Translations under genes and position numbers: made by a program
Virus record (IMG/VR): IMGVR_UViG_3300037424_000564
Location: 141,057 to 205,056 of that record
Direction: 5' to 3' (one strand)
Length of the DNA: 64,000 nucleotides
Source: a virus
Lineage: Duplodnaviria; Caudoviricetes
Notes under the pieces: generated by a model
What the model was told of the DNA's origin: nothing
Databases searched by the model: none
What the model saw: the letters and a program-made list of their open reading frames with translations, nothing else
Part shown: positions 58,743 through 62,820 of the stretch, one piece after another
How the letters are laid out: every line of letters starts with the position of its first letter
Position numbering within the stretch: the first letter of the stretch is position 1

Positions 58743-58793
58743 TTTTCCCTTCAATGTTATTTATAAAATAAAACAAAAACATTGAAGGGAAAA
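58743..58793 (-). promoter_or_regulatory. TATAAATA late promoter inside a 16-bp inverted repeat upstream of the HNH gene
   Basis: TTTTCCCTTCAATGTT (58743-58758) / AACATTGAAGGGAAAA (58778-58793); TATAAATA at 58758-58765. Confidence 0.7.
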
Positions 58794-58798
58794 GAAGA

Positions 58799-58833
58799 AA
58801 ACCCTATCACCGGACTAGCTGATGATAGGGTTT
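58799..58833 (-). terminator. Terminator closing the amber-leader operon
   Basis: AAACCCTATCA / TGATAGGGTTT stem followed by TTCTTCTTTT on the minus strand. Confidence 0.65.
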
Positions 58834-58836
58834 ATA

Positions 58837-58905
58837 TTAAGTAGCAAAACATTTCTTACATTGTGGTGTATGAGACTTACCACACTCTTTACATTTCTTG
58901 CACAT
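58837..58905 (-). CDS. 22-aa Cys-rich micro-protein
   Basis: MCKKCKECGKSHTPQCKKCFAT; GAGGT site 7 nt upstream. Confidence 0.45.
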   Translation of the reverse strand: MCKKCKECGKSHTPQCKKCFAT

Positions 58906-58942: not shown

Positions 58943-59260
58943 TTATTTGTACATTTTAAATTTTTTGAAGAACTTTCTATCCTCTCCATAAATTGGTTCT
59001 GTAGCAATTGCAGTAAAACCAGTTTCGTGATCAGGCTCGTAAAACATGTGAGACTTAATTCCTTGTAAATCCAATTTCAACTTTATATCAATCAATTTTG
59101 CCTGATCTTTGACCTCAAACAAAATAAAGTGACATGTCTTTTCAGGATGCTCAATTTGTTTCGTTATTTCTTGAGTTGAGTGAGCCGCCTGTATTATTTG
59201 ATAATGTAAAGACATGTCTTTTCTAATGAAGCAATAAGTATAAGGAGTCTAATTACGCAT
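58943..59260 (-). CDS. Peptidyl-tRNA hydrolase (Pth2)-like protein with in-frame amber codon at position 4
   Basis: AAGGAG-7 nt-ATG CGT AAT TAG ACT CCT TAT ACT TAT TGC TTC ATT AGA AAA GAC ATG...; read-through gives YTYCFIRKDM...QIIQAAHS...FYEPD...TAIATEP, which restores the family's first beta-strand. Confidence 0.72.
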
Positions 59261-59591
59261 TGTCAGTCTCCTTTAGAATAGCTCTAATTGCAATCAAATG
59301 ATCTTCTGTTAAGATACCACCAAACGGTGGTAGAATCCATTCTGGACGTGCATTGCAAACATAATTCATAGCTTTTCTATATGCTTCATTTCCAGTTTTA
59401 CCTTGACAAATTAATTTTCTCTTGGATTGCTTTTCTGGTGATGCAAAACATTGTTTAGGATCTTTGTCTCGTAAAATTGCGTAAAGAGCAAAGTCGTATC
59501 CAGAGAAATTGTAGTTGTCTTTGCATGATTGTTTCCATGCTTTGATCATGTTTAGATATTGTTCTTTAGATTCAAAAATTTCCATTTTCAT
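59253..59591 (-). CDS. Hypothetical protein, first full gene of the amber-leader operon
   Basis: 112 aa; stop overlaps the Pth2-like ATG (ATGCGTAA). Confidence 0.75.
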   Translation of the reverse strand: MKMEIFESKEQYLNMIKAWKQSCKDNYNFSGYDFALYAILRDKDPKQCFASPEKQSKRKLICQGKTGNEAYRKAMNYVCNARPEWILPPFGGILTEDHLIAIRAILKETDNA

Positions 59592-59601
59592 AGTGTGTAA
59601 T

Positions 59602-59661
59602 CCTTTATAGGTGATTAAGTTAAGTTAAGTTAAGTATACTTCACGTTATTTCCTATAAAAG
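59602..59661 (-). promoter_or_regulatory. Translational attenuator hairpin sequestering the SD of the 112-aa gene
   Basis: CTTTTATAGG (59661-59652) pairs with CCTATAAAGG (59611-59602), which overlaps the SD AAAGGA (59606-59601). Confidence 0.55.
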
Positions 59662-59697
59662 TTACGGTGGTCTATTTGAATGTGTCTATCGTTTCAT
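59662..59697 (-). CDS. Leader peptide M-K-R-[amber]-T-H-S-N-R-P-P
   Basis: GGAGG-5 nt-ATG AAA CGA TAG ACA CAT TCA AAT AGA CCA CCG TAA. Confidence 0.65.
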
Positions 59698-59747
59698 ATC
59701 AGCCTCCATGTGTTAGGGTTAAAGTTACGATCTATTCATAAAATCAT

Positions 59748-59776
59748 ATCATATCATTAGATTGGTTATCTGTCAA
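59748..59776 (-). promoter_or_regulatory. Early sigma70-type promoter of the amber-leader operon
   Basis: TTGACA-17-TATGAT. Confidence 0.8.
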
Positions 59777-61605: not shown

Positions 61606-61631
61606 AATTTATCTCCATTGTGATATGTTTG

Positions 61632-61703
61632 TGGGCAATGCGGGAATTGAACCCGCGATAGAGAATTTAGAGTTCCCTGCTTTAACCACTTAGCTAATTG
61701 CCC
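61632..61703 (-). tRNA. Amber suppressor tRNA, anticodon CUA (3' CCA not encoded)
   Basis: GGGCAAT TA GCT-AAGTGGTTAA-AGC A GGGAA-CT CTA AA-TTCTC TATC GCGGG-TTCAATT-CCCGC ATTGCCC A: complete 72-nt cloverleaf, followed by CAA. Confidence 0.92.
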
Positions 61704-62192: not shown

Positions 62193-62371
62193 TTATTAAT
62201 TAGTCGCATTGCTTTGATTATTGTATTTCTAGTTTCATCTGATAATAGATACCATGCGTTGTCTAATCTAACTTCAACCAATGCATTATGACAAATACTA
62301 GCCATATCATTTAATGCATTGATTGAAGCTGGAATTTTACATGGTTCTGGTGTGAATTCTATATCTCTCAT
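62189..62371 (-). CDS. Hypothetical protein
   Basis: 60 aa; overlaps the yqeY stop. Confidence 0.55.
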   Translation of the reverse strand: MRDIEFTPEPCKIPASINALNDMASICHNALVEVRLDNAWYLLSDETRNTIIKAMRLINN

Positions 62372-62820
62372 GATAGTGCCTGTTTAACTAAAACAGAAGC
62401 CATTTTCCCATCATATAGACCATCATATTCTTTTTTGAGAATTGACATCACTCTACCCATATCAGAAGGAGAAGTAGCATTGTTTGATTTTGTGATAAAT
62501 CCAATAACACCAATCAATTCAACTTCTCCCATTTGTTTAGGAAGAAATTCATATAAAATATTTCTCTCAATATCTAATTGAATTGGGTAAGTATCACATA
62601 GTTCAATTGTTTGATCAATCCCCTTGATAAATGCTTTAATTTTGTTAACACAATCTGTGTCAGTAATAAGACGTTGGCCATCATTCTTGGCAACCATTTC
62701 AATCTCCCCAATAAGAGTACCAAGAAGATTTGCTTTTATTTTGAATGATTTATTTCCAATTGCTTCTTTACGAGCAGCTACCCATTCCTTTTTAATCGTA
62801 TGAATTAGTTCTGGTTTCAT
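62368..62820 (-). CDS. yqeY: GatB/YqeY-domain protein
   Basis: IKKEWVAARK...LLGTLIGEIE...ITD...FLPKQM...DMGRVMSILK..Y.GLYDGKMAS.LVKQAL. Confidence 0.85.
   Translation of the reverse strand: MKPELIHTIKKEWVAARKEAIGNKSFKIKANLLGTLIGEIEMVAKNDGQRLITDTDCVNKIKAFIKGIDQTIELCDTYPIQLDIERNILYEFLPKQMGEVELIGVIGFITKSNNATSPSDMGRVMSILKKEYDGLYDGKMASVLVKQALS

Follow-up and report, generated by a model that had tools for sequence, protein, structure and literature searches.

An amber-interrupted leader peptide with an SD-sequestering hairpin as a likely translational switch reporting UAG decoding in a standard-code phage

Upstream of a gene for a 112-aa protein in the phage studied here lies a short leader ORF with an in-frame amber codon, and the end of this leader pairs with the SD of the 112-aa gene. 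This arrangement is likely to be a translational switch that acts in cis to signal the decoding of UAG as sense. The window, meaning the whole 64,000-nucleotide stretch of DNA that was analyzed, is part of a 205-kb genome; its features are collected in Table 1. The source of the phage is sediment metagenomes, and a search of sequencing runs listed no RNA run containing it.

On the minus strand the leader reads ATG (59697-59695), AAA, CGA, TAG (59688-59686), ACA, CAT, TCA, AAT, AGA, CCA, CCG and TAA (59664-59662), in agreement with a sequence-only reading that had described a GGAGG-led MKR(amber)THSNRPP-TAA peptide at this site. It comprises 11 sense-or-amber codons with its own SD, 70 nt upstream of the 112-aa gene, with UAG as codon 4, seven codons from UAG to UAA, and Arg-Pro-Pro at 59673-59665, the last Pro codon CCG standing directly before TAA. 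Transcripts from a strong sigma-70-type promoter have the leader at their 5′ end, and related loci carry TTGACA-type promoters at the same position. In a regular-expression scan of the entire 205-kb genome it was the single SD-led amber leader ending in PP-stop; a weaker match on the opposite strand, with an S-P-stop ending, is probably due to chance. An Rfam gathering scan of the window returned a tRNA as the sole match.

Under the mechanism that we propose, mRNA from this promoter would open with an efficiently initiated leader ORF. If amber codons are not suppressed, ribosomes would terminate at UAG codon 4, far enough upstream to leave the hairpin closed and the 112-aa gene off. Where the charged phage tRNA(CUA) beats RF1, the ribosome would read on for seven codons to Arg-Pro-Pro-UAA, covering and unwinding the 5′ arm of the hairpin, and would probably dwell at Pro-Pro-UAA because peptidyl-Pro-Pro is a poor termination substrate. 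The freed SD would then allow translation of the 112-aa gene, and a second gene, for a PTH2-fold protein, would be gated again by its own UAG at codon 4. Published work, in which C-terminal prolines impair termination (Hayes et al. 2002, as cited in PMC12856214; PMC6412442 in its section 5.6) and RxPP motifs stall elongation (PMC7897499), leads us to infer by analogy that PP-stop stalls the ribosome here, and we take hairpin opening to be what would activate translation of the 112-aa gene.

Table 1. Features of the leader, its hairpin, the downstream operon and the suppressor tRNA in the window
Feature	Position	Strand	Evidence or remark
tRNA, anticodon CUA (amber suppressor)	61631..61703	-	ARAGORN; Rfam tRNA, 69.5 bits
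Sigma-70-type promoter, TTGACA-N17-TATGAT with TG extension	59748..59776	-	11/12 consensus matches
Leader SD, GGAGG	59703..59707	-	5 nt before ATG; relatives all with GGAGG, AAGGAG or GGAG
Leader ORF, MKR-UAG-THSNRPP-UAA	59662..59697	-	Read from sequence; design common to 15/15 protein-selected loci
Hairpin 5′ arm, GUAACUUUUAUAGG	59652..59665	-	Contains leader stop codon; RNAfold, RNAduplex
Hairpin loop with 5-nt tandem repeat, 4.2 copies	59615..59635	-	TRF
Hairpin 3′ arm, CCUAUAAAGGAUUAC	59597..59611	-	Holds SD AAGGA (59605-59601) of 112-aa gene; P(SD paired) 0.8
Putatively regulated gene, 112-aa all-alpha protein	59253..59591	-	AlphaFold2 pLDDT 92.6
PTH2-fold gene, start ATG-CGT-AAT-TAG (TAG 59251-59249)	58943..59260	-	AlphaFold2 and Foldseek
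22-codon ORF with two CxxC pairs, operon end	58837..58905	-	Read from sequence
Terminator-like hairpin, 10 bp with one G-U, then T-rich run	58791..58830	-	Read from sequence

Pairing of the leader end with the downstream SD

The core stem named in the sequence-only reading, in which CTTTTATAGG (59661-59652) pairs with CCTATAAAGG (59611-59602) over 10 bp with one G-U, is recovered by RNAfold. The helix is lengthened outward and not inward: beyond a one-base bulge, GUAA (59665-59662), composed of the third base of the final Pro codon and the leader's stop, pairs with UUAC (59600-59597). An inner GTGA/TCAC extension that had been suggested was not confirmed because TCAC overlaps the main arm. The full helix of 14 bp covers the SD of the 112-aa gene. 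As an 82-nt hairpin it folds at -14.3 kcal/mol (z = -3.46), with 0 of 200 dinucleotide shuffles folding as well; the wider 181-nt region around it reaches a z of only -1.6.

Two repeats in this region proved specific to the locus. The 5-nt tandem repeat in the loop is not conserved in an alignment of the relatives. The second repeat, CGTAACTTT, does occur twice as had been noticed (59729-59721 and 59666-59658), and 3 of 300 shuffles yield a repeat of equal length. Comparable repeats are present in just 3 of 19 related loci, so we treat it as locus-specific, and a role as a functional alternative arm was rejected for lack of conservation.

The pairing itself covaries among 20 loci. Arm sequences and registers differ widely between loci and are not aligned by sequence, and a MAFFT alignment of 16 leaders therefore gave no consensus structure with RNAalifold; a swap test and a sliding-window test were used in its place. 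In the swap test, duplexes between a locus's own arms average -14.5 kcal/mol versus -7.3 ± 3.0 kcal/mol for cross-locus duplexes (permutation p<5e-5, a nominal value which, like the others given here, overstates independence since the loci are related by descent). The best upstream partner of the SD region within 200 nt is the leader-stop segment in 19 of 20 loci, with a mean z of -3.7, and the minimum free energy structure of each locus joins the SD to the PP-stop region, with P(SD paired) between 0.6 and 1.0.

The position of the 5′ arm suits a switch operated by the ribosome. It starts 12-29 nt past UAG (at least 15 nt in 19/20 loci), level with or past the front edge of a ribosome at UAG, and between -12 and +8 nt relative to the final stop of the leader. 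When a ribosome footprint was masked in silico, the predicted P(SD unpaired) was 0.24 with the footprint at UAG and 0.61 with it at the final stop, compared with 0.25 for free RNA (Wilcoxon p=1e-4, nominal); for the window locus the predicted opening at the final stop is modest, from 0.20 to 0.42. These models are consistent with the logic first suggested from the sequence, in which the SD stays masked when the ribosome is released at the amber codon and is exposed when it reaches the final stop.

Release at UAG might alternatively work as in tna-type polarity, with the RNA left naked for Rho to terminate transcription, a stall at PP-stop blocking Rho, and the hairpin of secondary importance. 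We assign this a low probability. The R-P-stop ending resembles TnaC, the spacer of 44-101 nt from leader to gene is untranslated, and a synthetic UAG-in-tna-leader switch described in section 6 of PMC6412442 works in this way; however, no C-rich rut site is obvious in that short, AT-rich spacer, no intrinsic terminator was found downstream of the hairpin, and what is conserved and covaries is base-pairing to the SD itself, suggesting that initiation is the controlled step. The two mechanisms are not exclusive, and polarity could act together with the SD switch that we favor.

Suppressor tRNA and genetic code

The tRNA(CUA) gene is the only one with this anticodon among the 26 tRNAs of the genome and lies on the same strand as the leader. 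We presume that it provides the trans-acting input of the switch, and its product probably reads the leader UAG. Linkage of this kind extends to other phages: among distinct in-frame loci found by pattern, 8 of 10 have a tRNA(CUA) gene on the same strand within 1.6 kb, versus 0 of 10 control loci. In two loci (L009 and L026) it is directly upstream, and in three (L007, L010 and L049) an apparent tRNA 3′ end occupies that place, its anticodon not being visible.

The phage uses the standard genetic code and is not TAG-recoded (code 15). Across the 205-kb genome, reading TAG as sense raises coding density from 0.81 (translation table 11) to 0.83, 20 ORFs use TAG as their stop codon, and TAG interrupts no long gene. 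Besides weak short-ORF candidates, in-frame TAGs have support at two sites only, one within the leader and one near the beginning of the PTH2-fold gene. In a genome-wide screen for SD, ATG, a few codons, TAG and a long ORF, only the PTH2-like gene stood out, with no enrichment relative to TAA and TGA controls.

Because RF1 and tRNA compete for UAG, the two inputs cannot be told apart from sequence alone, and the leader could sense RF1 activity (through host RF1 depletion or a phage RF1 inhibitor) or could be a plain sense-codon leader in TAG-reading phages. Either is improbable in our judgment. Tight same-strand linkage of tRNA(CUA) favors the tRNA as the variable input over RF1. The standard code is established for this phage, and some of the other loci come from very large contigs, which is compatible with TAG as sense there; but a plain sense codon would drift to CAA, CAG or others whereas TAG is invariant, and in this phage the standard code speaks directly against it.

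Conservation of the leader and the operon

In a set of 50,697 phage records, neither a 3.4-kb blastn query nor the 112-aa protein in tblastn found a match, and a search of viral contigs for related loci retrieved no relative with the single protein and one (L008) with alignment A1. Selection by the 112-aa protein alone gave 15 homologous loci with enough upstream DNA, at identities in alignment A2 from 66% down to ~25%. All 15 have a strong SD and ATG, 1-8 codons, an in-frame TAG, 5-8 further codons and a Pro-stop ending, usually R-P-P or R-x-P-P (RSPP in L016 and L020, RGPP in L031 and L049). The sequence-only reading had made its claim depend on finding the leader upstream of homologs, and the amber leader is kept in every one of these loci.

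TAG is never swapped for a sense codon, and Pro-stop is found in 22/22 distinct stop-terminated leader loci. A purine follows TAG in L049 and in 12 of the first 13 loci selected by protein. The residues preceding R-P-P are not conserved. Although the distance from TAG to the stop varies, it is always in frame with no other stop between. The Arg codon is AGA or CGT and the last Pro codon is CCG, CCT, CCC or CCA, so the part of the leader after TAG is under selection as a peptide.

A blind pattern scan of viral contigs gave 14/16 matches in frame versus 5/13 expected, and the two out-of-frame matches are in GC-rich DNA with no tRNA nearby. The TGA control version of the pattern gave seven matches without a suppressor tRNA nearby, including one plausible opal analogue (L037).

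Conservation of the leader end may have an RNA component: CCNCC-UAA is complementary to SD-like sequences, so part of it could act at that level. In its extreme form this becomes an RNA-only element, in which the real ORF is the 3-codon MKR-UAG and CCNCCNUAA is an untranslated anti-SD opened by an sRNA, temperature or a protein. CCUCC or CCACC followed by UUAA is indeed complementary to UUAAGGAG-type SDs, and the two pair in L001, L004, L007 and L011. We nevertheless find such an element quite unlikely, slightly more so than either polarity or RF1 sensing, since it does not account for a TAG-to-stop frame kept in 15/15 loci despite variable length, for the AGA/CGT exchange at Arg with all four third bases at the last Pro, or for the linkage to tRNA(CUA), and the window SD pairs with post-stop bases, not with the Pro codons, yet R-P-P is retained.

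The two proteins encoded behind the leader differ in how far they can be classified. The 112-aa family comprises ~130 clusters at 50% identity, with nothing in Pfam or PHROGs and no informative fold match in Foldseek searches of PDB, AFDB clusters and VIA-align wide or in two Atlas searches. For the second gene, the AlphaFold2 model (pLDDT 81.8) matches PTH2 structures 3erj, 2zv3, 1q7s and 1xty (Foldseek TM 0.65-0.73, E down to 1.6e-5). Its score to Pfam PF01981 is 16.7 bits with a cutoff of 23, and a profile of the PTH2-like protein gave no match among PDB sequences, where the fold search then did. In the model the first beta strand is encoded upstream of the sole internal ATG, so the full PTH2 fold is predicted to need UAG readthrough. 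The gene is in the operon of most relatives, where TAG at codon 3-6 is followed by an invariant PYTYCF strand, mostly with no alternative start. Whether stalled peptidyl-tRNA-Pro would feed back through such an enzyme, as suggested from the sequence, is speculation that goes beyond the PTH2 fold and amber dependence of the neighboring gene. The terminator-like hairpin after the 22-codon ORF is the probable end of the operon; a terminator scan, which accepts loops of up to 8, made no call there because this loop exceeds that size.

That the SD, ATG, two to four codons and UAG form a minigene or decoy like lambda bar, causing peptidyl-tRNA drop-off and loading Pth, with the PTH2-like enzyme coping and the rest incidental, is very improbable. 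Mini-ORFs of 3-8 codons do make peptidyl-tRNA accumulate (PMC2490762) and most relatives have the PTH2-fold gene in the operon, but the codon before UAG varies (R, H, F, M, L, C, Y or T), the leader is also found in L001 and L004, which lack a PTH2 gene, and the in-frame PP-stop and covarying hairpin would be left unexplained.

Significance and relation to known systems

Suppressor tRNAs are common in large standard-code phages, and their targets have so far not been identified; for XacN1, which has two CUA tRNAs, the authors of the genome paper stated that they had been unable to find the target genes (PMC5852040). The element described here supplies concrete, conserved targets, namely the leader and the PTH2-fold gene, and offers a simple logic, in which genes would be expressed only if amber is suppressed. 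Cultured phages have related arrangements, which makes experiments feasible: Ralstonia phage RsoM2USA has an amber-started PTH2 gene and a tRNA(CUA), and in Pectobacterium phage CBB an amber leader is fused to a gene of the 112-aa family, running on in frame without a stop.

More tentatively, and with the balance of probability against it, the leader, the 112-aa protein, the amber-started PTH2-like enzyme and tRNA(CUA) might together be a mobile checkpoint that asks 'is UAG being read?' in standard-code phages and perhaps in recoded ones, both proteins being made only once suppression works. If so, the two proteins would either deal with the costs of suppression, namely the ribosomes and peptidyl-tRNAs that readthrough leaves stranded, or reinforce suppression, and reinforcement, for example by acting against RF1, would create a bistable switch. 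This would reveal what suppressor tRNAs act on in jumbo phages with the standard code, where such targets have long been missing, and the checkpoint would be a plausible stepping stone toward full TAG recoding.

Among known systems, the ermCL/ermBL, cat and cmlA leaders, SecM-secA and MifM-yidC2 likewise place a short SD-led leader ORF upstream of a gene. Attenuators of the erm/cat type also lock the regulated SD in a hairpin, with its 5′ arm within the leader or adjoining it; here the SD is sequestered and the 5′ arm overlaps the end of the leader ORF. In those systems a ribosome held at a set leader position opens the hairpin, a step represented here by footprint masking only. Their input is a drug or secretion activity, in contrast to the decoding of an in-frame UAG, and the stall site proposed here is the leader's own Pro-Pro-stop in a leader of only 8-15 codons. 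The prfB (RF2) gene similarly uses an early in-frame UGA to sense the current decoding of that stop, but its output is a +1 frameshift in the same gene, with no suppressor tRNA, leader or SD hairpin. TnaC, in which free Trp blocks RF2 release of peptidyl-tRNA-Pro at R-P-UGA, shares a C-terminal Arg-Pro before a stop; in contrast, it needs conserved upstream residues (Trp/Asp) and free tryptophan, acts on Rho-dependent termination, and has no internal stop codon or SD hairpin.

RxPP and RAPP stallers (ApdA, ApdP, ApcA and selected RxPP sequences) also have Arg and then Pro-Pro at the arrest point. The window leader ends in S-N-R-P-P-stop with nothing between R and PP, different from RxPP with A, S, G or P as x, and while RAPP proteins are 80-200 aa monitoring substrates encoded upstream of sec/yidC that arrest in elongation and not at a stop (PMC7897499), the leader here has 11 codons followed by the gene for the 112-aa protein. 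In PepNL of Escherichia coli, likewise a natural leader peptide, regulation depends on readthrough of a stop codon; it arrests at UGA, and readthrough of this terminal stop by Trp-tRNA, a near-cognate host tRNA, relieves the arrest (PMC11890864), whereas here the ribosome would have to read through an internal stop before it could arrest, and a gene for a dedicated suppressor tRNA lies nearby. In code 15 phages, a phage tRNA(CUA) is present and readthrough has been proposed to time expression (Borges et al., bioRxiv 10.1101/2021.08.26.457843; PMC9523058), but the genome studied here is not recoded.

Our literature search found no natural amber-containing leader switch. An engineered parallel is the synthetic UAG-in-leader switch for unnatural amino acids, in which suppressor-dependent readthrough turns a gene on; as described in section 6 of PMC6412442 (its ref. 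107), it is an engineered tna leader that acts on transcription, in contrast to a natural and widespread element with an SD hairpin. The element would be the natural counterpart of these switches of genetic-code expansion, and would bring to the known class of leader-peptide switches a new kind of input, namely how a stop codon read by a dedicated tRNA is being decoded.

The amber leader and its hairpin in the window

The 192-nt gap between the 99-aa and 112-aa genes on the minus strand holds, in order, a promoter, a Shine-Dalgarno (SD) sequence, a leader encoding MKR-amber-THSNRPP-stop and a hairpin. The SD of the 112-aa gene, AAGGA, lies nine bases upstream of the ATG at 59591, within the 3′ arm. 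RNAfold returns one 14-bp helix as both minimum free energy (MFE) and centroid structure, and 0 of 200 dinucleotide shuffles gave an equally stable fold of the 82-nt hairpin (z = -3.46). The sequence-only reading had the coordinates right, and likewise the 10-bp core with its single G-U pair, but not the GTGA/TCAC extension: the helix instead lengthens outward through GUAA:UUAC, taking in the leader stop. The repeated CGTAACTTT that it had described is present in the window, and is not kept across related loci.

Features of the operon and of the suppressor tRNA region (window coordinates)
Feature	Position	Strand	Remarks
Promoter TTGACA-N17-TATGAT with TG extension	59776-59748	-	11/12 consensus positions
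Leader SD GGAGG	59707-59703	-	read from sequence
Leader ORF ATG AAA CGA TAG ACA CAT TCA AAT AGA CCA CCG TAA	59697-59662	-	
Hairpin 5′ arm GUAACUUUUAUAGG	59665-59652	-	pairs with 3′ arm
Hairpin 3′ arm CCUAUAAAGG-A-UUAC	59611-59597	-	includes SD AAGGA
112-aa gene	59253-59591	-	
PTH2-fold gene	58943-59260	-	start ATG CGT AAT TAG ACT; TAG 59251-59249
22-codon ORF MCKKCKECGKSHTPQCKKCFAT, two CxxC pairs	58837-58905	-	between PTH2-like gene and terminator-like hairpin
tRNA(CUA)	61631-61703	-	ARAGORN; Rfam tRNA 69.5 bits
YqeY/GatB-like protein gene	62368-62820	-	PHROG 'tRNA amidotransferase', E 9e-31; 0.7 kb upstream of tRNA(CUA)

Conservation of the leader, its frame and its pairing

The sequence-only reading had staked itself on the leader being kept upstream of homologs. 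Using DNA around homologues of the 112-aa protein with available contigs, we found the same leader design in all 15 distinct loci that had sufficient sequence upstream, at 66% to about 25% identity between the downstream protein and that of the window. These loci give 14 distinct leaders, one being represented by two samples (hyphen, internal amber; final stop omitted): MKR-THSNRPP (window), MQH-VRKIRSP, MKF-SNRPP, MKH-VRTNRPP, MNRH-GNIRPP, MTH-VATLRPP, MM-ICKTGPP, ML-IIKSRPP, ML-TQCRPP, ML-INSSRPP, MEADFYTY-LIRGP, MR-VTQIKIPP, MNC-VAKSRGPP and MM-VDFNIRGPP. In all 15 loci a strong SD precedes the leader, the last residue is proline and the TAG is never exchanged for a sense codon. A purine follows the UAG in 12 of the first 13 unbiased loci as well as in the related locus L049; RF1 recognition is affected by the base at this position (PMC6412442).

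Between 5 and 8 codons separate the TAG from the final stop, with the frame kept and free of other stops in all loci, where retention by chance would be one third per independent locus. For the leader arginine, some loci use AGA and three (L004, L009, L028) use CGT, while the last proline codon may be CCG, CCT, CCC or CCA with its first two positions invariant; this exchange and the free third base are a signature of selection at the peptide level. In the window, the partner of the SD lies 3′ of the stop and not in the proline codons, and R-P-P is nonetheless kept. We also scanned 2.9 million viral contigs blindly for GGAG, ATG, 1-2 codons, TAG-purine, a gap (13 lengths allowed) and MGN-CCN-CCN-TAA, with a tRNA being no part of the pattern. 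Fourteen of the 16 matches are in frame, as compared with 5 of the 13 gap lengths by chance (binomial ~8e-5), and the two out-of-frame matches lie in GC-rich DNA without a tRNA nearby. Proteins 3′ of three pattern-found leaders (L013, L026, L017) match the 112-aa family profile. The kept frame, the codon exchanges, the retained R-P-P and the blind scan indicate that the leader segment after the UAG is translated.

RNAalifold found no consensus structure on the aligned leaders because a sequence alignment cannot match up the arms. SD pairing is conserved even so, although neither the sequence nor the register of the arms is constant. For the first ten loci that were folded, every MFE structure joins the SD to the leader's final codons, its stop or the nucleotides immediately 3′ of that stop, and the probability of the SD being paired is 0.6-1.0. 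The duplex between the leader-stop region and its own SD averages -14.5 kcal/mol vs -7.3 +/- 3.0 for 380 cross-locus pairs. At nearly every locus the own partner is the best or second best (permutation p<5e-5), so that the covariation check suggested in the sequence-only reading came out in its favor, own arms pairing better than swapped ones. When a 24-nt window was slid over 200 nt upstream, the leader-stop window was the best SD partner in 19 of 20 loci, with pairing energies on average 3.7 standard deviations below shuffles.

The 5′ arm starts 12-29 nt past the first UAG base (at least 15 nt in 19/20 loci), which coincides with, or lies past, the front edge of a ribosome holding UAG in its A site. 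Measured from the final stop, the arm starts at -12 to +8 nt. Ribosome masking was modeled by forbidding pairing over a 27-nt footprint. The mean probability of an unpaired SD core was 0.25 with no ribosome, 0.24 with the footprint centered on the UAG and 0.61 with the footprint centered on the final stop, where 19 of 20 loci rise (Wilcoxon p = 1e-4); the window alone goes from 0.20 to 0.42.

Suppressor tRNA, genetic code and operon

The phage genome, from sediment metagenomes, is a single contig of 205,056 bp of which the window is the final 64 kb, with 30.5% G+C, 26 tRNA genes and nearly all genes on the minus strand. Exactly one tRNA has a CUA anticodon. ORFs of at least 100 aa cover 81% of the genome under table 11 vs 83% with TAG as sense, no long genes interrupted by in-frame TAG were found in the genome, and 265 non-overlapping ORFs end in TAA (186), TGA (59) or TAG (20). 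The genome uses the standard genetic code, which together with TAG invariance excludes a plain sense-codon reading of the leader TAG. Separately, the genome has 68 TTGACA-N16-18-TAnnnT sites, and the minus (coding) strand accounts for the majority of those listed; such a number suggests many sigma-70-type promoters and would be unusual by chance for a genome of this size.

A same-strand tRNA(CUA) lies 0.03-1.6 kb away in eight of ten distinct in-frame pattern-found loci, as compared with 0/10 near three chance matches and seven TGA-control-pattern matches (one-sided Fisher p ~4e-4). Six protein-selected loci carry one as well (window, L001, L002, L004, L009, L011), and three more (L007, L010, L049) show an apparent tRNA 3′ end directly upstream of the promoter, the anticodon falling outside the visible sequence. 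On a 379-kb viral contig (L021:4622-5415), a tmRNA gene and two tRNA(CUA) genes sit just upstream of the leader ML-VIRPP, clustering ribosome-rescue and suppression functions. Among the TGA-pattern matches, IMGVR_UViG_3300028588_000819 (L037:1933-1977, +) has the leader ML-TGA-VYLQRPP-TAA, whose end CCTTAATG is complementary to CATTAAGG at the SD of the next gene. It looks like an opal (UGA) form of this switch, and its 2.9-kb locus showed no tRNA. Another (L035:4612-4656, +) is preceded by sequence resembling a tRNA 3′ end (GTTCGATTC...CACCA), which gave no ARAGORN call in that locus and may be a non-cloverleaf phage tRNA. The YqeY/GatB-like gene of the window has a counterpart in phage XacN1, where a glutamyl-tRNA amidotransferase gene lies ~1.7 kb upstream of a PTH2-like ORF, and such neighbors may be relevant to charging of the suppressor tRNA.

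Neither Pfam nor PHROGs assigns the 112-aa protein to a family. It has metagenomic homologues and belongs to a family of ~130 clusters at 50% identity, and its model is an all-alpha domain (pLDDT 92.6) with no informative match in any fold library searched. The start of the PTH2-fold gene overlaps the stop of the 112-aa gene. With readthrough its product is 105 aa (AlphaFold2 pLDDT 81.8), and along its entire length the model matches PTH2 peptidyl-tRNA hydrolases from archaea and humans (TM 0.65-0.73 and E down to 1.6e-5 against 3erj, 2zv3, 1q7s and 1xty), with a Pfam PTH2 match under cutoff. The first beta strand (YTYCFIR) precedes the sole internal ATG. Seven metagenomic relatives have an amber at codon 3-6 followed by an invariant PYTYCF, and six of them replace the internal methionine with leucine or isoleucine, so that readthrough is required there. 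Amber suppression is thus used twice in the operon, which ends with the 22-codon CxxC ORF and the terminator-like hairpin.

Two cultured phages carry PTH2-like genes that are unannotated or annotated truncated. In Ralstonia phage RsoM2USA the unannotated gene starts ATG TTG TAG, 13 kb from a tRNA(CUA). In Pectobacterium phage CBB it has TAG at codon 4, and an amber leader, ML-NPSTGPPD, directly 3′ of a tRNA-Gly gene, runs in frame and without a stop into a 112-aa family member (L043 about 1437-1530 = L045:18297). This is the device in a fused form within a cultured phage; the 40 kb of CBB that were scanned showed no tRNA(CUA).

Probable gating by readthrough and comparison with known systems

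An amber-readthrough-gated leader switch is the best description of the element and probably its mechanism. A ribosome released at the amber would leave the hairpin closed, while one reading through to the RPP-stop would cover the 5′ arm and free the SD. All computational tests applied agree with this central proposal of the sequence-only reading. Ribosome dwell at the leader end is supported by published work: prolines at the C terminus impair termination (Hayes et al. 2002, cited in PMC12856214; section 5.6 of PMC6412442), and RxPP motifs stall elongation (PMC7897499).

The leader could sense RF1 rather than the tRNA, two inputs inseparable by sequence. A tna-like Rho polarity mechanism could coexist with the switch, although it is the pairing of the SD that covaries. 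The mini-ORF before the UAG is similar to the lambda bar minigenes, which load Pth (PMC2490762), but we rank this reading low because the codon preceding the UAG varies. Feedback through Pth acting on stalled peptidyl-tRNA-Pro, also suggested earlier, is not supported: nothing beyond co-occurrence of the PTH2-fold gene speaks for it, and two relatives (L001, L004) lack that gene, keeping the leader and 112-aa family gene with a different second gene. The frame and codon evidence is at odds with an untranslated anti-SD element.

Opening of an SD hairpin by a leader-peptide switch is textbook knowledge. What is new here is the input, an internal stop codon with a presumed dedicated suppressor tRNA, making this a variant of leader-peptide translational control. 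We found no natural leader gated in this way in full-text searches of the literature; leader, hairpin and attenuation are absent from the text of a phage recoding preprint (Borges et al., bioRxiv 10.1101/2021.08.26.457843), and the authors of the XacN1 genome paper (PMC5852040) explicitly did not identify the targets of its CUA tRNAs. A synthetic switch with UAG in the leader (PMC6412442 section 6) is an engineered analogue, and in the host leader PepNL (PMC11890864) arrest is cancelled by readthrough of a terminal UGA.
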